DNA of 63,195 nucleotides, the filler included, from Trichomonas gallinae (Eukaryota): NCBI GenBank assembly GCA_008369845.1. It is 6 parts of 6 records of this genome, joined end to end, with 100 filler letters (N's around TTAATTAATTAA, not from the genome) between each part and the next. Parts side by side here need not be neighbours in the genome. Positions count along the whole stretch, not along the records: positions 50,989 to 63,195 come from MRSU01000595.1; 5 more parts are not named here. One strand, given 5' to 3'. The position numbers were made by a program, and so were the translations under genes. Below the pieces are notes generated by a model, which worked only from the letters and a program-made list of their open reading frames with translations, was not told the origin of the DNA and made no database searches. Numbering within the stretch: position 1 is the stretch's first letter; every line of letters starts with the position of its first letter. Below, in pieces: positions 9,336-63,195 of the stretch.

Positions 9336-9910
9336 TTTTAATTTTTCTATTTTTATTATTTTTCCTTTTTTTGAAGTTCTAACGTGCGATTTATCTTGTT
9401 GCTAGATCTAATTTTTCATTCATAGGAAATTTATTTATGTTGAAAATTCGTCGAATTTAGCAAAATTTAGTATAAGCTAATAATAATTTTGAAATAGTTC
9501 ATAATTGTTAAAAAAAATATATAAGGAAACTAATACTGAAGATGAAAATACCAATGTAATTCGTAGGAAGACACTCAGTGTTGTTTGAACACATAAACAT
9601 ATTTATTCGATCAAATGTTACACAGACAAAATCATCCATGCTAATACTTATTTTCATAAGAATCCACTACATGCAAATAACTAGTTATTTTATTGCAATT
9701 TCGAACTATTTTTAGAAACCAGTGCAATTTTCGTTTTGAGTTCGATCGATACACAATTAAATTCTCGGCGTTTTTCCTCGGCTCAGTTTAGTCTATCGTT
9801 TACATCTATAGTTGACATGTAAAACCTTTCTTTTTAATAAGATTTTCTCCGTTATTAGCAATAATGCTAATTGTTTTTTTTTTTATTTTTATTGATTTTG
9901 ATAACTTATA

Positions 9911-9986
9911 AAGAGTGTCCGGCTAAGTGTGAGCATCTCAAGTTAGGGGTGTGCTAGGTTCGATCTGAAAACAGATATAGATAGCC
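9911..9986 (+). mobile_element. Dispersed repeat; probable decayed Tc1/mariner-type terminus
   Basis: 63/75 ungapped identity between 9912-9986 and 63121-63195; follows TA and begins AAGAGTGTCC (other copy TAGGGTGTCC). The right boundary is unknown. Confidence 0.6.
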
Positions 9987-23704: not shown

Positions 23705-24505
23705 TTAGTGGAAAATCTTGTTGAGAGGAACTGCAAGAAGTTTGACAACTTCTTTATGATCTTCTTCTAAAGCAACAGTCAAAGCATTTTCACTATCTTC
23801 ATCTTCATAGCCTACATTTATTTCAGGAACTGAGAGAAGTAGTTTGACAACTTCATGATTACCATATGCTGAAGCAAGAATCAAAGATGAATAAGTGGCA
23901 ATATCTGTTGCATTGACATTTATACTAGGAACTGTAAGAAGGAGATTGACAATGTCAGGATATCCATTACGTGAAGCCCACATCAGAGCTGATCTGTTGT
24001 ATTTGCCTTGTGCATTGATATCAATTTTAGGAATTGTGAGAATGAGTTTGATAACTTCGATATGACCTTTGTTTGAAGCATTTATCAAAGATTTATTAGC
24101 ATCAAAATGTGGAATTTTTTGGATAAATCTAAGAAACTCAGTATCATTGCAGAATCCATAGATATTATTGCTGTTTCCACTAAATTCTATTATGAGACGA
24201 GCAAGCTGGGTATTGGATTCCTTGATTGCACGATCAAAGACTGTTTCACCAATTTTGTTTTTAACTTCGCAAAATTTCTCTTTCACACCAAAATTCATGG
24301 CGTCGAAATCGTTTTCTACTGCGATTACATTGAATGTATTATAGATTTTGTCAAACATTTCTTTGGTTTTATTTAGTTTTTTCAGAATCTCAATATTTTT
24401 ATTCATAGTTTGGCCTTGTATTTCTGTGGAAACCAACTGCGTCTCAGAAGGTGAAAATTGCCTGGATTGTAAGTTATCGACGACTTTTCTTTCGAAAGAT
24501 TCCAT
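23705..24505 (-). CDS. Ankyrin-repeat protein (266 aa)
   Basis: About four ankyrin repeats (SALMWASRNGYPDIVNLLL...INVNA). Confidence 0.88.
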   Translation of the reverse strand: MESFERKVVDNLQSRQFSPSETQLVSTEIQGQTMNKNIEILKKLNKTKEMFDKIYNTFNVIAVENDFDAMNFGVKEKFCEVKNKIGETVFDRAIKESNTQLARLIIEFSGNSNNIYGFCNDTEFLRFIQKIPHFDANKSLINASNKGHIEVIKLILTIPKIDINAQGKYNRSALMWASRNGYPDIVNLLLTVPSINVNATDIATYSSLILASAYGNHEVVKLLLSVPEINVGYEDEDSENALTVALEEDHKEVVKLLAVPLNKIFH

Positions 24506-24632
24506 TAATTGGTTAATAAAAAGTGAATCAAAGAAAAAAAAAGTCGTTTTGAAAAAATAGTCGTCATATAAATTATTGTTCAGAAAAAATCTCCATCAAA
24601 TCCTATTTATTTAAATTCTATCATTGCTTTAT

Positions 24633-24734
24633 TCAGGAATAAAAGATGCTTGAAATGACTCAAAATTGAAGGAGCAAGAATAAAAATATACTGCCAATTT
24701 TTGAACTTCACTCAAAAATTGGCGTATATTTTTT
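24633..24734 (+). repeat. Dispersed ~102-bp hairpin element, copy A
   Basis: About 87/102 ungapped identity to 61819-61920; stem-loop at 24682-24733. Confidence 0.9.
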
Positions 24735-24801
24735 TATATGTGTTCACCAAAGGTGCCGATTCCCAAAATGTGACACTTATCAAAAATCCACAATGTTAAT
24801 A

Positions 24802-24877: not shown

Positions 24878-24977
24878 NNNNNNNNNNNNNNNNNNNNNNN
24901 NNNNNNNNNNNNNNNNNNNNNTTAATTAATTAANNNNNNNNNNNNNNNNNNNNNNNNNNNNNNNNNNNNNNNNNNNN
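24878..24977. other. Artificial scaffold linker
   Basis: N44-TTAATTAATTAA-N44. Confidence 0.98.
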
Positions 24978-26869: not shown

Positions 26870-27340
26870 TATATCTTTATGTGATGTATATTTTGCGCAA
26901 TTTTCAAATTTTTTTTTGGAATTCCAAATATATCATTTTACATCAAGACTTGCATTAACAGAAGCATAATTCAAAGCTGTTTTGTTTAAAATGTCTTTTG
27001 CATTGATATCTATCTCAGGAATATTGAAAAAAATATTGACGATTTCATTATAGCCAAAAAATGAAGCAAAACTCAAAGGAGTAAAGCCGATATTATCTCT
27101 AGATTTAATGTCAATTCCTGATTTGACCATAAGACTAATCTAGTTTTCTCTGTATCTGCAAATTCCTTTAATTTTTTTTGAAGTTGAAGTTTACTATTTG
27201 AGTTCACTTCAATGATGCAGATTCGTATTGCAAATGTATTTGTTGTGCTTGCATCATAAATATGCGATCGTTGAGTGTTTATCGAGTTGAATTTTCGTTC
27301 ATTTTTTCTGACTTGAATATTACGAAAATAGTTTTTATTA
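26870..27340 (-). pseudogene. Ankyrin-repeat pseudogene fragment
   Basis: GFTPLSFASFFGYNEIVNIF...IDINAKDILNKTALNYAS ends at an early TGA; the upstream part is in another frame. Confidence 0.7.
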
Positions 27341-29364: not shown

Positions 29365-29565
29365 ATTTTTGTCAAGTAAATTATAACTATTGTCAAATAA
29401 TCAATACTTATGTCATGTAAATCATATTTTTTGTTAAAAAATATGTTGTGTAAATCAATTTTATTGTCATGTAAATAAATTTTATTGTCAAATATTGAAT
29501 TTTTGTCGCGTAAATTATTTTTATTGTCAAAATTCAATGATTCCCTTATAAAATATTGTCATTAT
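29365..29565. repeat. Degenerate ~20-bp-period TGTCA array
   Basis: TGTCA or a near match at 29370, 29391, 29411, 29432, 29465, 29486, 29504, 29525 and 29557. Confidence 0.7.
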
Positions 29566-29815
29566 GATTTGTTTATTGTTCACTCAGCGTGGAATAATGT
29601 TACCGTTTCCCAACACCAATATAATTTTCGGTCTCCACGACCCTCAATATGTGAACCATAGTATATTGCATCATTGTCAGAAAACCGTTTTGCAACTCTT
29701 TATATATGACGTGTAAACATTCCCTTTTTTGCCAGGTATTATTTTTTGACGCGTAAACTTTACATTCAAGAAAAACGACACTTTTTTTGTCTAAAAAATC
29801 ATATTTATTTCTTAA

Positions 29816-44181: not shown

Positions 44182-44653
44182 TCTCTTAATGTAATAACGT
44201 TCTTCGAAAAGTGACAAAGAAGAAGATTGTCACTTTTATTGACTTTCTCCATCAAACATTTCATAACGAAATCTTTTGCGTCCAAATTAATTAATTTCAA
44301 ACAACCCTAAATCTTGAATATAATCCACAAAATACGCGATTTTAACTTTCATTCAATTTAAAATAAAAAAAATTTCTTTATTCAATCATCAATTAATGCA
44401 AAATCTAAAATTGCATTTTGAGGCCTAAATATGAGTATATTGTATCTAAATAGTCCATTTATGATTGATCCGCAGTAAAAAAATATAAAGAATTCTCTAA
44501 TCAAGAATTTTGCAATCTAATATATTTACATAATTCCTGATCACATTAAAGCTATTTTGGGAAGTTTAAAGGCTATTGTTAGGAAGTAACAGTTGCGAAA
44601 GATTATTTATTAGCTCAAAATACATGTTAATTTAATTGAACAGTAAAATTTCC

Positions 44654-46530: not shown

Positions 46531-47520
46531 TAAAAATATTTATTTCAAAGGATTTTTGGTTTAGTTCTCAATTTTTATGAGAAAACAAAAAAATTATACG
46601 AAAATATACAGCAAAATCATTAATACTATATTATTTTTTAACTTATGTAAAAAAATGTCAGAAATTTAATATTTTTGGCTAAAACTATAATAATAGGCAA
46701 TAATATAATAATGTACATATTAATTTAAAGAGATTTAGCAAAAATATTTTTGTATACGATAACATCATTCAATTTTTTTAATCGTATTCAAACAATATTT
46801 TTTAATTAGTATCGCTTTTTAATAATCTATATTAATATTAGGTTTTAGTTGAGGATTCGGACGATTATTTTGGATTCAAAAATTATCTTACATTAAGGAA
46901 ATTATATATTTTAGTATTATAAAACGATTTTTCGAGAAAAAGATTATTTCGTAAACTTCACAAAAACTTCAAAATAATATTTTAAAAATTCATAATATGT
47001 ACATAAATAATATTTTTGATTTTATAATTTTTATGATGATTTTTTCCATCATTTGAAAAATTGCTCATATCCCTCACATATATGGGACTTAACTAATATA
47101 CAATCTGTATATGGGCTTTTTGATTCAAAACATTTTGATTCTCCCCTTTCTTGTTTATTAAACATGATGAACTTCGAAAGGCTCAAGGAAATTGATTTAA
47201 ACTTCGTATATATTATATAGACATGTTGAAGATGGTATACATAAGATATTTAAGGATTTAAACAATTTAGAATCGAGTTTGATATTCATCTTTTGATTCA
47301 GCCTATGTAACTGTGTTTTTTTTAAATAGCATAAAAAAGCATGCTAATAACTTAATATATTTTCTTTCTGTTTCATTTTAATTAGATCGCAATTCTAATT
47401 TGATTTTTAGACAATAATTTTTTTAAGATTATAATATACAAGTCCTGCTCATATAATTTTGATCAAATTCTAGCTATTATTTAAAGTTTTATATTTATCA
47501 AAATAGAACAAATATATTTA

Positions 47521-50988: not shown

Positions 50989-51065
50989 TAGTATCTTTAA
51001 GGTGTCTATATAATACCTGCAAAGTTTAGGGCAATTTCCTAGATCCCTTCGAAGTTTCCATACCT
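50989..51065 (-). mobile_element. Putative transposon tip (same terminus as 11451-11526)
   Basis: AGTTTCCATACCT (51053-51065) followed by TTAC. Confidence 0.6.
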
Positions 51066-54473: not shown

Positions 54474-55282
54474 TTGTCAACAGAATGACACTTTTCTGGT
54501 TTTCAATTAAAATTTTACGGGCTTAAAATGATTTTTAAATCATTTTTAAAATTCTATATTGATATTATAATTTTGACTCAATTTTAATATTGAATTGAAA
54601 ATAATCGTAAATTCGAGTTGACTTTTGATGATCACTCACAGAATCATTTTTATTTGACAAAGAGACATAACTAAACATTTATACACAAATCATATCAAAG
54701 ATAACAAATTTTTTACTTATTATCAACTAAATAACGATGGTTGATTTAAATTTTGAGTTTTATTATAATATATATCATATACTGCACATATTATTGAAAT
54801 TTGCATTATTTTTTTTTCATTTTGCAGCGTACCAACTTGATACTTCTGCCATATAAGTCTCATGCATTAAACTAACCTATTGTTATTGGTTATGTATTTA
54901 ACATGACACACGAATGGCAAAAAATTAAAATGTAAAAAAAAATTTTGTTAAATTCCATTTTGCTATTTGTATTATATAATATAAACTAATATGGAATGAA
55001 TACATAAGGTCAAAATATGGATAATCGATCATAAATTTAATGTTGAATTTTAAATCCATTGTATCAGCAAAAATTTATGTCTAGACTTTTTCTAATCTCT
55101 ACACAGACTGACAAGCACATGGAAAAACTTCGAAATAATTCAAGTTTACATTTCTCAACATCAAATAGTGATTTACAAATCAGATGCTTTATATATAATA
55201 ATTTACTTCAAACAACTAATAAATATTTATTCTAAAAAAGTGTAGTTTTCCATTAAAATGAAAAACTCATATAAATTAAATT

Positions 55283-56830
55283 TCAAACATCAATGGATTG
55301 AAGTTTCTTCAACATTTCAGATTTGAAAGGCGGAGGCTTTATGATCTTTCTGTGAAGAAACAGCCAAGGTTCCTGCTCTTTTCTTTGAGAAAAATCATCG
55401 AAAATTTCTTCAGCAACTCTTAGAACTTTGATAGGGTCGATTTTTTCGATTCCTCTGTCCATTGCTGTCATTACTTCGCCTATCTCGTTGGCATTGACAC
55501 TTACAAAGAAAGGAAAAGTATTGATAACAATAGAAGCAGTGAAGAAAATGATAAATATATAAGGATCTGAGCACGAATAAAAAGAATCCCATAATCTAAA
55601 TGATTCGTCTTTGTATTCTCTTCTGTATTGGAGCAAGAAAAATCGATAAATAAATATCATTTCTTTCTGTTTGTAATAAGACAAATAATGCCTTATTCCT
55701 ATGTGAACGTTCGATACTAAGTAAGCCACTCTTTCTGCCATATGTGATTCTTGTTCATAAATTTCGCCAAAGATTTCATCGTGATGACTCTTGTGCATAC
55801 AGTCAACAAATATCCAGAAAATCATGCTTTGACCTTCTAAATTCGATATTTCTGAATTATCAAATAAAATTATTTTATCTGCTGCAATTTCTTTAAAAAA
55901 TACGTGCATGAATGTTGCTGCGAAGTCACCCATCCCCTGCACGTATCCAGTGTCTCTATTATAAACTGTCCAGCATCTTAAAACGTTTTCAAGTAATTTA
56001 TGGGCTTCTGAGTCTTTCTTTGAAAACATTATGTAATTTGAGTCAGTTCTTTGGACATCATTGCTAATAATCATGAAAATTGTCCAAAATTGTTTTTGTT
56101 CAGGAATCAAACTCGTTTGTTTTAGCAAAATAGAATATTCCTCAGCCATTTTAGCCTTTCTTTTATTGTTATCTTCAGTTGTTAGGCTTGGATCTATATA
56201 TCCAAAAAGATATTTCCAAAAAACTGGTCTTGCTTCATCTGTTAGCCCATATTTGTAAATATTTGCTTTCAATTCATCAAAATTTTCTATTTTACCTTCA
56301 TTTGTAATTAAATTTCGGATCTCATCTAGTGTATATGCGCTTCTATCGAATTTTTGCTTTATATGTGTTTCCATTCTCGTACAATAATTCCGATGCACTA
56401 TATAAGAAAATATAGTAATCAAGTTATTTAAAGTTGCAGTCCGATTTTTTAAAATTTTATAGGAAAAATCTGTACTTTGTTGTATTGCTTTAATTTGCAT
56501 AAGTTTTTGTAAGGAATCCATCAGTGTCTGAAGACACTCGCCGCTTACATGAAAAGTTATATTATAATTTGCAAAAGGAACGTCGAATAATAAATAATGT
56601 ATATCATCGCTGTTCTTTTTGATAGTAATTATTGATGATTCTATTAGATCGAATGAAAATTCGGAATATTCGATGTTGCATTCTATTAAATTTAATGTCT
56701 GCATATAAGATGAGACCCAATTAACAATAATTCCATTTCCGCGGCGAAAAATATTAAGATTTCCGCAAGTTCCATAATCTTTCCTTAATTGGAAAATTAC
56801 CAACAAATTATCTAAATAAATATCATCCAT
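55283..56830 (-). CDS. TBC-domain Rab-GAP (Gyp7/TBC1D15-like; 515 aa)
   Basis: RPVFWKYLFG, IxxDxxR (ISNDVQRT), YxQ (GYVQGM) and RLWD; both catalytic fingers intact. Confidence 0.92.
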   Translation of the reverse strand: MDDIYLDNLLVIFQLRKDYGTCGNLNIFRRGNGIIVNWVSSYMQTLNLIECNIEYSEFSFDLIESSIITIKKNSDDIHYLLFDVPFANYNITFHVSGECLQTLMDSLQKLMQIKAIQQSTDFSYKILKNRTATLNNLITIFSYIVHRNYCTRMETHIKQKFDRSAYTLDEIRNLITNEGKIENFDELKANIYKYGLTDEARPVFWKYLFGYIDPSLTTEDNNKRKAKMAEEYSILLKQTSLIPEQKQFWTIFMIISNDVQRTDSNYIMFSKKDSEAHKLLENVLRCWTVYNRDTGYVQGMGDFAATFMHVFFKEIAADKIILFDNSEISNLEGQSMIFWIFVDCMHKSHHDEIFGEIYEQESHMAERVAYLVSNVHIGIRHYLSYYKQKEMIFIYRFFLLQYRREYKDESFRLWDSFYSCSDPYIFIIFFTASIVINTFPFFVSVNANEIGEVMTAMDRGIEKIDPIKVLRVAEEIFDDFSQRKEQEPWLFLHRKIIKPPPFKSEMLKKLQSIDV

Positions 56831-57019
56831 TTTTATGTTTTTTTTAGAAATTATTACAAAATTATTCGAGAAAATTATGAATATTATTCATAATTGGATA
56901 TGCATAACATCGGTAAAAGAATTAATATACCTTATATTAATGTTAAACAAATTTGATTGATAAATTTCTTAAAATAATGAAAAACAAATGAGATACATGA
57001 ATGTTTTATAATAATGATA

Positions 57020-57330
57020 AACACATGTGATTGATGGAATTTCAATTAATGGCATTCCTTCAAATTTATGATAGATGTCAATTGATTCTTTTTCAAATTC
57101 AATTATAAAGTCATCAAGCTTATCCCAAGCAACTAAATATTTAATACTTTGTGCTGGAAAAATTTCATCGCATGGCTGAAATCATAACAGCTGTAGTAAG
57201 ATTTAATTGATTCATAATGAAGTCAATTGAAAATATCTGAATCTAAACAATAAGCTCTATATTATTTCTACGATGTATTCTGAAACTATTCCATAACGCA
57301 AATATTAAATGAATGTTTAGATGATATGCC
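57020..57330 (-). pseudogene. Remnant of a DUF3447/ankyrin-associated family gene
   Basis: Start-less frame CDEIFPAQSIKYLVAWDKLDDF...MPLIE resembles a recalled trichomonad 'YIAWDKVDDL' family; flanked by stops. Confidence 0.45.
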
Positions 57331-57406
57331 GAAAATATAAAAAATCTCTAATTTTGTAAACGATAGAAATACAAACAATTTATGATTACATGGATAAAAA
57401 ATAACA

Positions 57407-60400
57407 TTAATCCAACAGATAGGCTGGATTGATCCTTTTGGTTTTTGTTGTGACGCTTGAGCGACGAGAGTTATTATGACGTATTGGCTTCTCTATCTTC
57501 TTTGAGCGTGCAGAATGACATGATTTACGATTTCGTTGGCCATAATCGAAAATATGAGACAAGTCATTCAAATTCTGTTTGCGGAAACCAAAGTCAACAA
57601 AAGGAGGCTTTGATTCATTGGATTTAACTTCTCGATATATTGCTTCATTCTCTTTCATTTGATGCTGGAGAGAATAAAGTTTTGCTGACCGTTCTTGAAC
57701 AGTGATTCGACGAGGATGATGGTTGACAACATCTGTGCTGCGATCATAGCAGTAATACATTTCATCTTCATTCTGATAAGGAACTCTGAAAACTTTTGGT
57801 TTGTGTGTTGTCTGTCTTAGAAATTCGCGAAGTGACTCAATTACATTTCGATATTTTTGATTTTGATTTTCATCATCATTTAACATTTTTTCATCAATCA
57901 ATATATTATCTTCATCATCTATATCGAACTGTGCGCCATGGAAACATGCAAGTCTACCAAGAATCTGCTGAATAGATTCGTCTTCAATATCAACAAAGTT
58001 CTTCAGGAAATTCTTGTCGAAGTAAAGTTTTGCTGGAATTTCGTCTCTGATATCTACGTCAGGATCTGGATGACTTTGTTTAATCAATTTAACTTTTCTC
58101 GGATTTAATGCCTTAACTGGCGCAAATTCTCTAGGAACTTCATATTGCTGAGATGGCTCTTTTACACGAATGTCTTGACCTAAAATTGAGTTCTTCAATG
58201 TTTGTGAAGAAATTCCTTTATTTTTATGTGCAACTACACATTTTTCTTCTTCATTAGCATAAAATTTGGCTTTTTGATTATTTTCTTTTTCCTCTTCAAT
58301 ATTATCTTTAACAGATGACATTTTTATTTTTGGATCTTTCCTTATGCTGCTTCTTGAACTGTGTGGTGAATAATTTTCATCTGAAGAATCAAGAAATTCT
58401 TTGATAGTTTTTGAACTTTTACGTGAATCATCTAATATGACAATATCGGATTTAGTTTTGTTGCTCCCACGCATTCCAATATCTTTTGTATGTAAGATCG
58501 GATTAGGTTTGTAATCAGATTTCGGTGACTTTTTATGTTTCTTTGATTTAACTTTTGTATCAATCTCAATGAATTCATTCGTTTCTTTGTCCACAGGTAC
58601 ATCTGACTCAACTACCTCTTTGGAGCCCATTGATTTTCCGAATCTTGCTGAAGGCAATTCTAATTTGACTGTAGATGAAGAGAAATCACTTTGAATGTTT
58701 TCATTATTAACAATTATTGATTCTCTTAGAACATTTTTGTTCTTTTGTTTTAGTCTTGGATTTGGGATAGATTTGTTAGCATTTTGTTTGAATCTTGTCG
58801 ATGCAGGTTGTTTTACATCAATTTTCTCCGAAGTTCTTGAACTCAAGGACTTTTGTGATATGGAAAGACTATTTATAGTCTTTGGTGACATTGATATTTG
58901 TTTTGTTGGAGATTCATTCGGATTTGATTCGCTTTTCATTGACATTTTTGATGATGGAGAAGACATCTTTGAAATTGGAGTAGAAAGTTTCGAAGATGGA
59001 GAAGAAATCTTTGATGATGATTTCATCGGAATATTACTTGTGTTTTCGTTTTCAATGTGGCTTAATGATGAATTATTTCTCATTGATTTTGTTGACAAAG
59101 ATGATGATTTTCCAGATTTTGGAGATATTTCGTCTACAATAAATTTTGGAGACATTGATGACTTAGGAGAATTCAATTCTGATTTCTTATCAGATGATGC
59201 TTCTTCAATCTTATTATTATTCTCATTTTCAGTTGCAATTTTAACTTTCTTTGCTTTTAGCTGTTTAGCCTTCAATTGTTTCGGTTTCTCGAGCTTTTCT
59301 TCTTCTTCTTCGACGTATTCATATTGATCTTCTTCTTCAACTTGTTTCTGATTGTTTTTAGTTTCTTCTTCTTTATCTTGTTTTTCTTTAATTTCTTTCT
59401 TTCTGTCTGCTTCTTCCATTAGCATTTCCATCTCACGCAAATCCATTAATTCTCTCATAGATCTACCCATAATTTTCTTCTCTTCATCTTCTGATTTATT
59501 TTCCTTTTCTTTCTCTTTTTCTTTATTGTTTTTCTTTCCTTTGTTTTTGTTGTTTTTAGTATTTGATGGTTGAGTTTTCTGGAAAGCAGGGACCCATCTT
59601 TTAGCCGGATCAATTTCATATTCCCAGTCACTGTCAGATTCTTCTTCGAGAGGAACTGGTTCAGGAGCATTATAGTTTGGATCTAAAAGGAAATTCATGT
59701 CTTCTTCTTCGCAATTGTCGAAATCATCAAACAATTGGAATCTGCCGTTCATTTTTTCTTTAAGTCTATCAAAGTTGTCGAAAATTGGATCTTCTGGATC
59801 AACTTGAATTCCGAACAAAGAAGAACCATTGACAATCATTATTTCATAAGGTGTGCCAATTAGTAAACCTCTTTTACCGTTTAGAAACGCAACAGAAAGA
59901 ATTGGAAGAGGAAGAGAAATATTAACTAAAATCTCGCATTCATTCGACCAAACTAAAATTGTTCCATCGTAACCAGAAGTAACAAAAAATGATCTTCCTG
60001 GTGTGATTCCTGTTATTCTTCCTTTATGCAGTGGCTTTTCTCTTGAATGTATCCTGACAATGATTTTCTCGTGAACTCTTGCAATGTTGAATGATCCATC
60101 TTCATAACCAATAACAATATTACTTCCACACATGCATGAAATTATTCCATGAGAGAAATCAATGACATCAACATCTTCTCCAGTATCTGTATTATATCTA
60201 ACAATGCAGTCCTCATAGAAAACAAAGAAAGAATGTGTTTCATCGTGATGAAGAATTTGGAAGATTTTATCTCTTCTTTTTCCAATTCTCTTCCAAAATC
60301 TTAGTTTTTTGTATTCATAGACTATGATGTCACCTTTTTCTGTGCCAATCAACAAGCACCATTTACCGCAGAACATGCTCAATACACAACATGTTGCCTT

Positions 60401-61756
60401 GAGATCAACAGTCAAAACTGGTTCCATGAGTTGTCCATTCGTTCCAAAAACAGCAATCATTCCAGTATCAAATGTAACGAAAAGCTGATCTCTGCTTGTT
60501 GCAATATTGTGCATGCCACGATCGACAAGAACAGAGACGGGAAAGCCAGTAATTCTAGCGTGGCATATTGACAGCAATCTTCTGGACACAGGGGAAAATA
60601 GTTGAATAGAAGCGTCAGCGAGTAATACAGCAATTCTTGCTGCACCGTTTGCTTTTGGACATCTTTCGATTTTCAGTGGATGTGTTGAGACTTTTCTCCA
60701 CAAGGACCAAGGTATGACGACTCTGTACGCTTTCGCTCTATTTCTGTACATGATAAACAAGAGAGTAGCATGGCCGCGTTCTCTTTCGAAGAAAATGTGT
60801 AAAGGAGGAGCTTCTGCTTTAATTATTGGGAAAACACGGTCGGTTTTGATATCAAATATGCTAATGAAAGTGGAGCTGTCGTAAATAATATAGAATTCAT
60901 CAGTCATTCGAAATGCAATATAGATTGGCTTATTTACTGATGTATAATGAAACTTCAGACGGCCGTATTTGTTCCATAAGCACACACCTTGGTCACCATC
61001 ACTTGTTAAAGACTTTTTTGTTGATTCGTTGTATTGAAATAAAGTAAATGTTTTCGAATTGTATGAAATTGGGCATTTCAGCATATTTCCATCGACGTCA
61101 AATGCAACAATGCCATCTTTTGTAGGTAAAACTAGTTGGTCTTTTGATTCTATAAAGCAAGGATTAGATAACATCGGCGCCATGTATCCCAAAGCAAAAT
61201 GTTTTAGGAATTTTACGCTAAAACCCGTAGTAATTTTTTGATTTTTATCGCGAGAATAGTCCTTTTCCAGTTGCCATGATTTGATTCCGATTCCTAAAGT
61301 GAAAAATATTTGATGTTTCTCAGAAAATATGATGTGACAAATGCCTACTTGATCGATTGGTTCACTCGTATATACTGGTTGATATAGATTGTTTATATGA
61401 TAAATTTGTATTCTTGACGGATTTGGAATAATGTTGATAATAATGTGATGAGATTTAATATATTTCGCGCAACATGATGAAACATTGTATGATTTTACAA
61501 ATCGGCCTCCGTTGAACAGATTAAATTGCTTTGAACTCACTGCTATTTGTTCAAACTGGCCAATTTTTAACATGGAATGATAACAGGATGAACCACGAGT
61601 AAGGTCATATTCATCAATGATTCCAAACTTAATCATTCGGGTCCGCCCTGATTCATCCATCCAAAAATTTATAACGAAAATCTTTTCAAAATTTTCGCCA
61701 TTAATTGTCATGTAAATTAGTTTATTGTCAAAAATCATTTCAAAATTAAGCATCAT
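57407..61756 (-). CDS. WD40-repeat protein with a long charged/Ser-rich C-terminus (up to 1449 aa)
   Basis: HKGRITGI...FVTSGYDGTILVW and LTSDGDQGVCLWN. The true start may be the downstream ATG at 61660. Confidence 0.85.
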   Translation of the reverse strand: MMLNFEMIFDNKLIYMTINGENFEKIFVINFWMDESGRTRMIKFGIIDEYDLTRGSSCYHSMLKIGQFEQIAVSSKQFNLFNGGRFVKSYNVSSCCAKYIKSHHIIINIIPNPSRIQIYHINNLYQPVYTSEPIDQVGICHIIFSEKHQIFFTLGIGIKSWQLEKDYSRDKNQKITTGFSVKFLKHFALGYMAPMLSNPCFIESKDQLVLPTKDGIVAFDVDGNMLKCPISYNSKTFTLFQYNESTKKSLTSDGDQGVCLWNKYGRLKFHYTSVNKPIYIAFRMTDEFYIIYDSSTFISIFDIKTDRVFPIIKAEAPPLHIFFERERGHATLLFIMYRNRAKAYRVVIPWSLWRKVSTHPLKIERCPKANGAARIAVLLADASIQLFSPVSRRLLSICHARITGFPVSVLVDRGMHNIATSRDQLFVTFDTGMIAVFGTNGQLMEPVLTVDLKATCCVLSMFCGKWCLLIGTEKGDIIVYEYKKLRFWKRIGKRRDKIFQILHHDETHSFFVFYEDCIVRYNTDTGEDVDVIDFSHGIISCMCGSNIVIGYEDGSFNIARVHEKIIVRIHSREKPLHKGRITGITPGRSFFVTSGYDGTILVWSNECEILVNISLPLPILSVAFLNGKRGLLIGTPYEIMIVNGSSLFGIQVDPEDPIFDNFDRLKEKMNGRFQLFDDFDNCEEEDMNFLLDPNYNAPEPVPLEEESDSDWEYEIDPAKRWVPAFQKTQPSNTKNNKNKGKKNNKEKEKEKENKSEDEEKKIMGRSMRELMDLREMEMLMEEADRKKEIKEKQDKEEETKNNQKQVEEEDQYEYVEEEEEKLEKPKQLKAKQLKAKKVKIATENENNNKIEEASSDKKSELNSPKSSMSPKFIVDEISPKSGKSSSLSTKSMRNNSSLSHIENENTSNIPMKSSSKISSPSSKLSTPISKMSSPSSKMSMKSESNPNESPTKQISMSPKTINSLSISQKSLSSRTSEKIDVKQPASTRFKQNANKSIPNPRLKQKNKNVLRESIIVNNENIQSDFSSSTVKLELPSARFGKSMGSKEVVESDVPVDKETNEFIEIDTKVKSKKHKKSPKSDYKPNPILHTKDIGMRGSNKTKSDIVILDDSRKSSKTIKEFLDSSDENYSPHSSRSSIRKDPKIKMSSVKDNIEEEKENNQKAKFYANEEEKCVVAHKNKGISSQTLKNSILGQDIRVKEPSQQYEVPREFAPVKALNPRKVKLIKQSHPDPDVDIRDEIPAKLYFDKNFLKNFVDIEDESIQQILGRLACFHGAQFDIDDEDNILIDEKMLNDDENQNQKYRNVIESLREFLRQTTHKPKVFRVPYQNEDEMYYCYDRSTDVVNHHPRRITVQERSAKLYSLQHQMKENEAIYREVKSNESKPPFVDFGFRKQNLNDLSHIFDYGQRNRKSCHSARSKKIEKPIRHNNSRRSSVTTKTKRINPAYLLD

Positions 61757-61818
61757 ATGAAAAGTAAATAATATTATTCTTGAACATTCAATTTTGAATC
61801 GAAACGGTTATAATTAAA

Positions 61819-61920
61819 TCATGAATAAAAGATGCTTAAAATGATTCAAAATTGAAAGCACAAGAATAAAAATATACAGCCACTTTTTGAGCGAAGCTCA
61901 AAAAGTGGCGTCTATTTTTT
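61819..61920 (+). repeat. Dispersed ~102-bp hairpin element, copy B
   Basis: Perfect GCCACTTTTTGAGC-GAA-GCTCAAAAAGTGGC stem-loop; homologous to 24633-24734. Confidence 0.9.
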
Positions 61921-61922
61921 AA

Positions 61923-62357
61923 TTATTTCGAGTTTTTTATTCATCAATAAAAAATAACAGTGCTGTTGGATCATTAACATCTATTATTTGTTTTGGTAGC
62001 CTTAAAGTAGGTGATTACAATTTTATCGAGAATCCAAAATGTACCTATGTTCTCGGCTTTGAATATCCTGCAACAGCTGATCATTGCATAGTTAAAGATA
62101 CTGGTGATCCAAGTACCTGTGCTTTTTACGTATATCTTAATGATGATGATCAAGAAGTCAGAGTTACTAATTTATATTTTGATATTACGTCAAAAACACC
62201 TTGTTCATATGGAAATGTAATTATATAATCTGTCATCCCATTACCAGATATTCAGCCTATTGAAATGATGACATACAGTTATAATTCAATTGAGGCGGTA
62301 AAAGAAGTAACATTATTAGCTTCTTCATTTTCAGAGTTAAGGACATCATTTTCTTAG
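61923..62357 (+). pseudogene. 5'-truncated Cys-rich surface-protein gene fragment
   Basis: About 100 open codons without a start (FYSSIKNNSAVG...YNFIENPKC...DHCIVKD), an in-frame TAA, then more coding-like codons to TAG. Similar debris lies near 62850-62970. Confidence 0.55.
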
Positions 62358-63119
62358 CATCGGGATTTGATTAACTACATAATATGAATTTTTTGATGTT
62401 GGCTTTAAACTGCGACATGATATTTTTTTTAATCAACATTTTATTTAATACAGTATTTTAATATATTGCAAAATCATTTGAGGGTTCTAAGAAATAGTTA
62501 CCTTATGTTGAAAAAATTTTTGTAATGAAAATTTATCGATAAAATTTTACAAAGGTTATTAAATTATAAACGTTCGCAGATTTTACAATTTCGATAATTG
62601 TGTTAATAATATATAGTGCTTTTTATTTTAAATTGAATGTGCTTTGAAAATAATTTTACGTACGGGTGTGGCAATTGTTATTTTTATTGGCTGCTCACCA
62701 CTATCGCGATTTACTATATTCCTAATAACTTTTTGGACTTGTTATCCAAATCATGAGATGAGTTCTTCTACGATGAAAATAATCCAAATCTAGATACTTC
62801 GAATTGCAAAGACGGTTATTTCGGTCAATCCCACTCCTTACCAAAAAGCAAAGTTGTAGCAGAATGTTCTTTTGTTAACCACAAGCAGAAGGAATGCACA
62901 ATATTTGAAGTAAAGCATGACGATTCTTCCATTTGAATATTAAACAATACGACATTTGGCAAAAATTATCATGTCATCGTTGCAAATTACATGTCATTTT
63001 CCCCTCAAATAACCGTTTTTTCCATGGAGAGGCTTAATCATACTTTGATTCTGAAACAATTAACCAAGAATATATGCGAGATTTTGTGAATTTTTTGAAT
63101 CATGCAGATCAGCCTAATA

Positions 63120-63195
63120 TAGGGTGTCCGGACTTTCGTGAGCATCTCAAGTTAGAAGTGTGCTAGATTCGATCTGAACACTGATATAGATAGCC
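63120..63195 (+). mobile_element. Tc1/mariner-type terminus running off the window
   Basis: TA then TAGGGTGTCCGG; homologous to 9911-9986; the sequence ends 76 bp in. Confidence 0.65.

Follow-up and report, generated by a model that had tools for sequence, protein, structure and literature searches.

Canonical HLE2 elements carry short inverted repeats at both ends and a stem-loop after the right-hand repeat, and insert between T and T (HELIANO, PMC11417382; this paper and the others given here by PMC number are cited from the accessible parts of their text). The described ranges are 8–18 bp for the repeats and 5–10 bp for the palindromes (PMC4067079, PMC3627910, PMC11417382). In HINE-Mo, palindromic subTIRs are found 38–60 bp and a palindrome 8–35 bp from the 3′-end, and the termini bear T-runs (PMC4067079). 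FoHeli1/2 start with TC after TNAT, end in ATTTT and have a repeat 38–51 bp upstream (PMC5148889), while left-truncated copies with an overabundance of 3′-ends have been described for Helitron2 (PMC3627910). The left end of Helraiser is essential and its hairpin acts as a terminator; changing the loop and the closing pair together reduces activity to a level as low as that seen after hairpin deletion (PMC4778049). Helitrons are present in all seven trichomonad genomes tabulated in PMC12289875 (Table 2), with counts of 2, 27, 9, 1, 1, 67 and 9. The single mention of Trichomonas in the accessible text of the HELIANO paper concerns T. stableri, which was removed (PMC11417382). Our literature search, which covered neither Repbase nor most subscription journals, found no Helentron/HLE2-type ends described in any parabasalid; a relative of the element presented here could already stand in Repbase, in the supplements of the Helentron papers or in the rest of the T. 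vaginalis library.

The stretch of Trichomonas gallinae DNA analysed here (GCA_008369845.1; 63,195 nucleotides, hereafter the window) consists of six contigs joined by N-linkers. It contains a dispersed repeat of about 145 bases, and the best explanation that we can offer, one on which we are evenly divided, is that of a non-autonomous rolling-circle transposon working in the manner of Helitron2/Helentron HINEs. If this is true, HLE2-like elements would extend to the Parabasalia in an unusually small form, and the end motifs would become available for finding the autonomous partner.

Two copies of a hairpin-bearing repeat

The repeat was first noticed as two ungapped copies, about 85% identical, on different contigs. 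BLASTN within the window reproduces this match: copy A (24633–24737) and copy B (61819–61923) align over 105 nt without gaps at 84.8% identity (89/105, E = 4e-29), and N-linkers at 24878, 30724 and 50889 separate their contigs. The two hairpin copies are therefore a real observation, and their status as a dispersed repeat is confirmed. Five of the 16 differences are concentrated in the 7-nt centre, the remaining 11 being spread over the other 98 nt.

The hairpin of B (61868–61919, plus strand) comprises an outer stem, a bulge at 61878, a perfect inner stem of 14 bp (61879–61892/61896–61909) and a GAA loop at 61893–61895; the perfect 14-bp stem around GAA reported in the first-pass annotation was thus recovered. 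It is followed by a terminal run of six T residues (61915–61920, plus strand). Copy A corresponds to only the right-hand 103 nt of the element (24633–24735, plus strand, by BLASTN). Its hairpin (24682–24733, plus strand) has an inner stem of 12 bp (24693–24704/24712–24723) enclosing a 7-nt inverted centre (24705–24711), with TTC on the plus strand and GAA on the minus strand, and its right end is a run of seven T residues (24729–24735, plus strand). The stems of both copies continue for about 10 bp beyond a 1-nt bulge, as had been claimed, with one mismatch in that part of B. When the 24-pair structure is compared between the copies, 20 pairs are constant, one has changed on both sides and three are broken in one copy. 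Folding of the A and B hairpins on either strand gives z-scores of −6.3 to −7.6, which none of 200 shuffles equalled.

Upstream inverted repeat, boundaries and further copies

The extent originally assigned to B was 61819–61920, but the true unit is longer: it starts near 61776 and includes an inverted repeat that had been overlooked. Positions 61768–61800 pair with 61843–61875 at 28/33, and the core of this pairing (61776–61800/61843–61867) at 22/25. This inverted repeat is the best among 139 AT-rich windows and was reached by none of 300 shuffles. The proposed complete element of 145 nt accordingly occupies 61776–61920 (plus strand), its left boundary being that common to the metagenomic contigs described below and its right boundary the end of the A/B match. 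The left arm (61776–61800, loosely from 61768, plus strand) is bipartite, TTCTTG-n5-TTCAATTTTGAATC, such that two conserved blocks lie on either side of a variable 5 nt. The 14-nt core of the arm is palindromic (12/14 in the left arm, at 61786–61799, and 10/14 in the right arm) and begins 10–11 nt inside the boundary. The arms are 42 nt apart; within this internal spacer (61801–61842, plus strand) lies the counterpart of the first base of copy A, at 61819. The right arm of B (61843–61867, plus strand) directly adjoins the hairpin and ends 53 nt from the last T, while the inner stem lies 11 nt from the last T. The hairpin also abuts the right arm of A (24657–24681, plus strand), which is complementary to the left arm of B at 21/25. 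The window was searched for a left arm of A without success, no further match to one of the arms exceeding 19/25. Two stems that abut each other form when the region 61776–61922 is folded (z = −8.96).

The left end of B reads TTAT followed by TC, with TT at 61777–61778. The right ends of the copies read CTATTTTTT and ATATTTTTTT, and both finish in ATTTT. Flanking direct repeats of 6 nt and 5 nt are present; since repeats of at least 6 nt occurred in 52/300 random placements, neither stands above chance. On the left-hand side of A, a 19-bp inverted repeat (84%) at 24479–24566 spans the start of the neighbouring ankyrin gene, and part of it (24552–24566) resembles the right end of the element read backwards (12/15 with A), which may be due to chance or may represent an alternative left end of A.

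Further copies were found in run X1, a single DNA run from one study, a bird metagenome by its record, available as Logan contigs. X1 contains 0.14 of the words sampled from 55200–63195. Alignment of its contigs to 61400–62300 at 80% likeness gave 11 records, and the details given here rest on the eight that are listed; the run has no cover at 61927–62300 and is uninformative there. Record 1 represents the gene beside B in orthologous form, with 13 differences in 318 nt (about 96% alike), from which it follows that the source of X1 is a related strain or a sister species. At 61717 this record departs from the sequence of the window, and it ends after 34 more letters, too soon to show an empty site. 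Records 5, 6 and 7 begin to match at 61776, 61777 and 61785, respectively, with 82–89% identity and unlike flanks. The matches of records 5 and 7 extend only to 61856, so that the hairpin lies outside them, whereas that of record 6 runs to 61896; record 8 spans 61861–61906. Three further records appear to match about 61879–61909 near-exactly (99%-plus class), as calculated by arithmetic from leftover depth (70 and 73 per base, in two bins) rather than by alignment; the eight listed records account for the 95–99% and below-90% identity classes, which leaves the 99%-plus class for these three. Contigs break at palindromes, and several of these records may therefore be one locus. Records 2–4 (61705–61743) match a separate common motif and were dropped as copies. 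The common left boundary and the unlike flanks point to a dispersed family whose left boundary is the left arm, and the case of only two copies lying within a larger segmental duplication does not apply.

Alternatively, the arms and spacer (61777–61866) might be a cut-and-paste MITE that has terminal repeats of a bipartite kind and duplicates TA; the hairpin would then be a separate module that became linked to it. As in Tc1/mariner MITEs, the short inverted repeats of B are bordered by TA on both sides (TA-TTCTTG...CAAGAA-TA). The arms, with their two conserved blocks and variable 5-nt middle, would suit such an element, as would records 5 and 7, which match only 61776/61785–61856, and the three further records that seem to contain the hairpin alone. 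Mariner and other DDE families are also common in trichomonads (PMC12289875). However, the flanks of a MITE should vary by locus, whereas the right arm continues into the hairpin in B, in A and in X1 records 6 and 8. In addition, copy A starts within the spacer, and the base preceding 61776 in record 5 is not T, so that the TA is not conserved there. We consider this explanation rather unlikely.

Both copies lie less than 160 nt upstream of minus-strand genes, as initially reported, and an ORF was found at each. The gene facing the left end of B (57407–61756, minus strand, ATG at 61756 or 61711) has weak beta-propeller hits of the WD40 type, and at A an ankyrin-repeat gene (23705–24505, minus strand) starts at a distance of 128 nt from the left end. 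This placement could potentially be accounted for if the repeat were a regulatory module in dispersed form, or an RNA gene of small size that forms two hairpins and ends in a T-run, with its structure under selection, although we regard this as unlikely. The left ends of A and B are at most 160 nt from a start codon in the same orientation, an arrangement with a chance of about 0.11 for one copy placed at random and 0.012 for both (a post hoc figure); as RNA, the hairpins give strong folds (z = −7.8 to −9.3). Against this, the genes beside A and B show no relationship to each other, the contig that carries the WD40-type gene in X1 differs from 61718 onward, and the inverted loop described below alters the RNA loop, which argues for a symmetry at the DNA level. 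Nor does the element match any Rfam 15 family at the gathering threshold: all 12 E-value hits, H/ACA, miRNA and other families among them, fall far below it, and the window as a whole yields only two tRNAs. No RNA run appeared among those containing the sequence, and the RNA runs X2 and X3 gave no contig for this region, results that carry no information on expression.

The truncation of A at the left, with its right end intact, could also be expected of a SINE-like retroposed unit with 5′ truncation, or the repeat could be a fragment of a larger unrelated one. NeSL retrotransposons do occur in trichomonads (PMC12289875), and the other readings leave 58 nt, from the break in X1 (61717) to the boundary (61776), without an explanation. 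Yet the element ends in a T-run and has no A-rich tail, no target duplication was found, and the left arm is where three of the X1 contigs begin. Of six 11–12-mers from the element, five are absent from the visible text of the T. vaginalis TE library (PMC12289875, supplement 5) and the sixth gave an isolated hit; this is a weak negative, because the visible text of long entries comprises their first 400 letters and the ends of the library's two Helitrons lie outside it. We judge an origin of either kind quite improbable.

Comparison with rolling-circle elements

The closest described counterparts are the HINEs/DINE-1 elements (Thomas et al. 2014, PMC4067079). Like them, the repeat has no coding capacity, a palindromic repeat core, T-rich ends and no evident target duplication. 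In HINEs, an inverted repeat at the 5′-end recurs 38–60 bp from the 3′-end; here, the arm starts at the X1-defined position 61776 and its partner ends 53 nt from the last T. The 3′ palindrome of HINEs lies 8–35 bp from the end, compared with 11 nt for the inner stem. A stem-loop follows the right repeat near the 3′-end in both A and B, its stem of 14–24 bp being longer than the 5–10 bp described. The arms differ from those of HINEs in being bipartite and 25 bp long (12–15 bp in HINEs); for HINEs and other non-autonomous Helentrons, repeats of 12–18 nt, often palindromic, are also given, and here the whole arm measures 25 bp and its conserved core 14 bp. Other differences are the interior of only 42 nt, the parabasalid host, and that neither a partner Helentron nor an empty site was found. 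As regards insertion at TT or a T-rich site, the element has TT at its left end and T-runs of six and seven at the right ends of its copies, with no duplication above chance.

Helitron2/HLE2 elements (PMC3627910, PMC5148889, PMC11417382) likewise have asymmetric inverted repeats, of which the right one stands directly before the 3′ hairpin, a hairpin with a GAA loop and left-truncated copies. FoHeli1/2 (PMC5148889) further share the TC start after TNAT and the ATTTT end. The short terminal motifs (TNAT, TC and ATTTT) weigh little, as they are cheap at about 20% G+C. The GAA loop of the present element is in the 3′ hairpin rather than the 5′ hairpin, and no RepHel was found in the window. Two features of the strict Helitron2 definition of Bao and Jurka are lacking, and the element is not filed as a member: the 5′ repeat takes part in no stable 5′-terminal hairpin, and the 3′ repeat, placed 20–30 bp from the end and 8–15 bp long by that definition, has a length of 25 bp here and lies 53 nt away from the end. 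The left end folds at only −1.5 kcal/mol (z = +0.49 and +1.45; 129 and 190 of 200 shuffles as good), and no stable 5′ hairpin was found there. With Helitron1 (Helraiser, PMC4778049), the repeat shares a TC near the left end and, at the right, a hairpin separated from the end by about 11 nt, but not the CTRR between A and T at the 3′-end, which is absent from the right ends given above; the inverted repeats, conversely, have no equivalent in Helitron1. Terminal direct repeats of the Replitron type (PMC10288648) were not seen at the element boundaries.

The initial guess of a small non-autonomous Helitron/Helentron thus gains from the upstream inverted repeat and from the X1 copies with a common left boundary, while the arguments first brought forward for it are weak. 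Beside the observed anatomy and dispersal, we infer mobility, an enzyme and a strand. By analogy with Helraiser, the left arm would be nicked by a RepHel transposase whose gene lies elsewhere, one strand would be peeled off as far as the right arm and hairpin, and the copy would be inserted at a T-rich site without target duplication. Copy B would then be a complete copy, and copy A a right end whose left end is lost or different. Several observations count against this reading: A lacks a left arm, although the left end is essential in Helraiser; the arms and stem are longer than those described; no stable 5′ hairpin was found; the hairpin lies outside the matches of X1 records 5 and 7; and TA borders the arms of B on both sides. 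No RepHel or other transposase was detected in the window by Pfam searches of 25 long ORFs and 71 frames, 68 of them short (0 hits).

Wider searches returned few matches. Two pattern scans of viral contigs gave 0 and 0 matches, as did a pattern scan of JGI metagenomes with the repeat cores (0 matches), and BLASTN against plasmids and phages produced no match to the element. Scans with the hairpin arms gave one match in JGI metagenomes and two in bacterial and archaeal genomes; these three were rejected as relatives, since they match only the hairpin and the adjoining A/T-rich letters and have other loops.

Loop inversion, pair swap and neighbouring features

The centre of A, read as its reverse complement, is GTGAAGT, compared with GCGAAGC in B, the two differing by two C>T changes. 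The reading of the A centre as an inverted B centre with two transitions was upheld: compared with three point changes, inversion together with two C>T changes is the more likely, by a ratio that depends on the rate assumed for the loop (about 13,000 if it equals the background rate, 91 if it is 0.4 and 8 if it is 0.6). The oligonucleotide d(GCGAAGC) forms a very stable DNA mini-hairpin. As an argument of the first-pass annotation it is weak: the mini-hairpin is lost in A, and the 7-mer occurs nine times in the window. The C:G to A:T change on both arms is likewise real and involves the two sides of a single pair (61883/61905), but it is weak evidence of mechanism and has no statistical power: a covariation check on the two sequences (24 pairs) was equalled by 257 of 500 shuffles.

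The flipped loop is a weak argument as well, since template switching between short inverted repeats homogenises their arms and inverts their spacers in ordinary DNA (PMC8604942). Ten spacer inversions have been described in yeast coding genes, every one at arms exceeding 9 bp and GAA/TTC swaps among them, these flips being reported at arms of 10–11 bp (PMC8604942), and hairpin inversions in plastids are described as common (PMC9653739). The present case shares the perfect arms of more than 9 bp, the inverted 3-nt GAA/TTC and the homogenised arms with these inversions. It differs in its location, which is a dispersed repeat and not a single-copy locus, and template switching would account for the loop but not for the dispersal. 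As template switching yields both the flip and the pair swap, neither needs a special replication mode or selection, and the reversed loop is likely an ordinary replication slip involving no new mode of replication. The polymerase would have switched templates between the perfect arms, either during transposition or in normal chromosome replication; the closing pairs of A would afterwards have been eroded by two C>T changes. The repeat offers a clean example of how template switching, and not selection, can produce both a flipped loop and a compensatory change.

A different origin for the two loops would be true flip and flop by hairpin transfer, if the repeat were an end, now integrated, of a replicon primed by hairpins (like a parvovirus, or a linear DNA with hairpin ends). 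The well-supported flip, the unusually long stem and the GCGAAGC loop of B are in keeping with such an end. One X1 record leaving the hairpin at 61909 gives a weak hint of what may be another flipped copy, as nine of its letters fit the left flank of A, reversed, at 6/9 and the right flanks at 1/9. The window itself contains one copy per orientation, such that a single flipped copy has been demonstrated, and A has no stable loop. Flips of this size are known from plain chromosomal DNA (PMC8604942, PMC9653739), and the viral-contig, phage and plasmid searches above gave no match. We hold this origin to be highly improbable.

A combined proposal is very doubtful in our view: a 145-base parabasalid single-strand element might generate flip and flop isomers of its 3′ hairpin through its own replication, and inversion would move the GAA loop between strands, switching termination on or off and thereby controlling read-through and the capture of host DNA. 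If true, hairpin transfer of the parvovirus-like kind would be combined with ends of the Helentron type in the chromosome of a eukaryote. The repeat itself would be a surprise only with flip and flop common in young copies and with an effect of both on termination.

The genes of the window encode DUF3447 ankyrin, BspA-type LRR, M60-like, pyruvate phosphate dikinase and adaptin proteins. A search with the adaptin gave 22 hits: the three that bear a species name belong to Histomonas or Tritrichomonas (35–38%), and the matches at 99% and 68% are Logan proteins. Together with the gene set, this suggests a parabasalid. Directly to the right of B, protein-like frames with stops are found at 61923–62357 and 62757–63089 (plus strand). 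They likely represent a decayed gene; for this broken ORF, Pfam gave no hit, a comparison with 50 longer candidates revealed no homolog, and the one lead, to a beta-helix, is weak. A short ankyrin-repeat fragment lies between genes at 26936–27139 (minus strand) and is similar to the ankyrin gene beside A.

The motif TGWCRYGTAAA, a pattern picked post hoc, occurs 12 times in the window compared with 0.44 expected, and 11 of the 12 sites lie outside long ORFs. The sites are at 2656–2682, 9813, 11986, 13266, 19356, 29366–29757 and 61706, with a tandem-like cluster at 29366–29536. At the gene beside B, one site coincides in part with the likely start codon, which is where the orthologue in X1 diverges. 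The motif may serve as a binding site for a transcription factor or be the unit of a repeat.

Two other dispersed repeats are present. The first (9905–9986 and 63114–63195) is 82 nt long at 83% identity and has no significant fold; its start resembles a Tc1/mariner terminal repeat. The second (47170–47233 and, inverted, 50993–51056) is 64 nt long at 80%, with one copy at a contig start. Other short A/T-rich repeats are found near the copies and were not relied on. At another contig start (30825–30881), two adjacent hairpins, with a G+C-rich stem of 9 bp followed by one of 10 bp (z = −7.2), are possibly the end of another mobile element. Finally, a perfect 11-bp inverted repeat with TGACAA/TTGTCA arms is found at 44207–44237, just upstream of the pyruvate phosphate dikinase gene.
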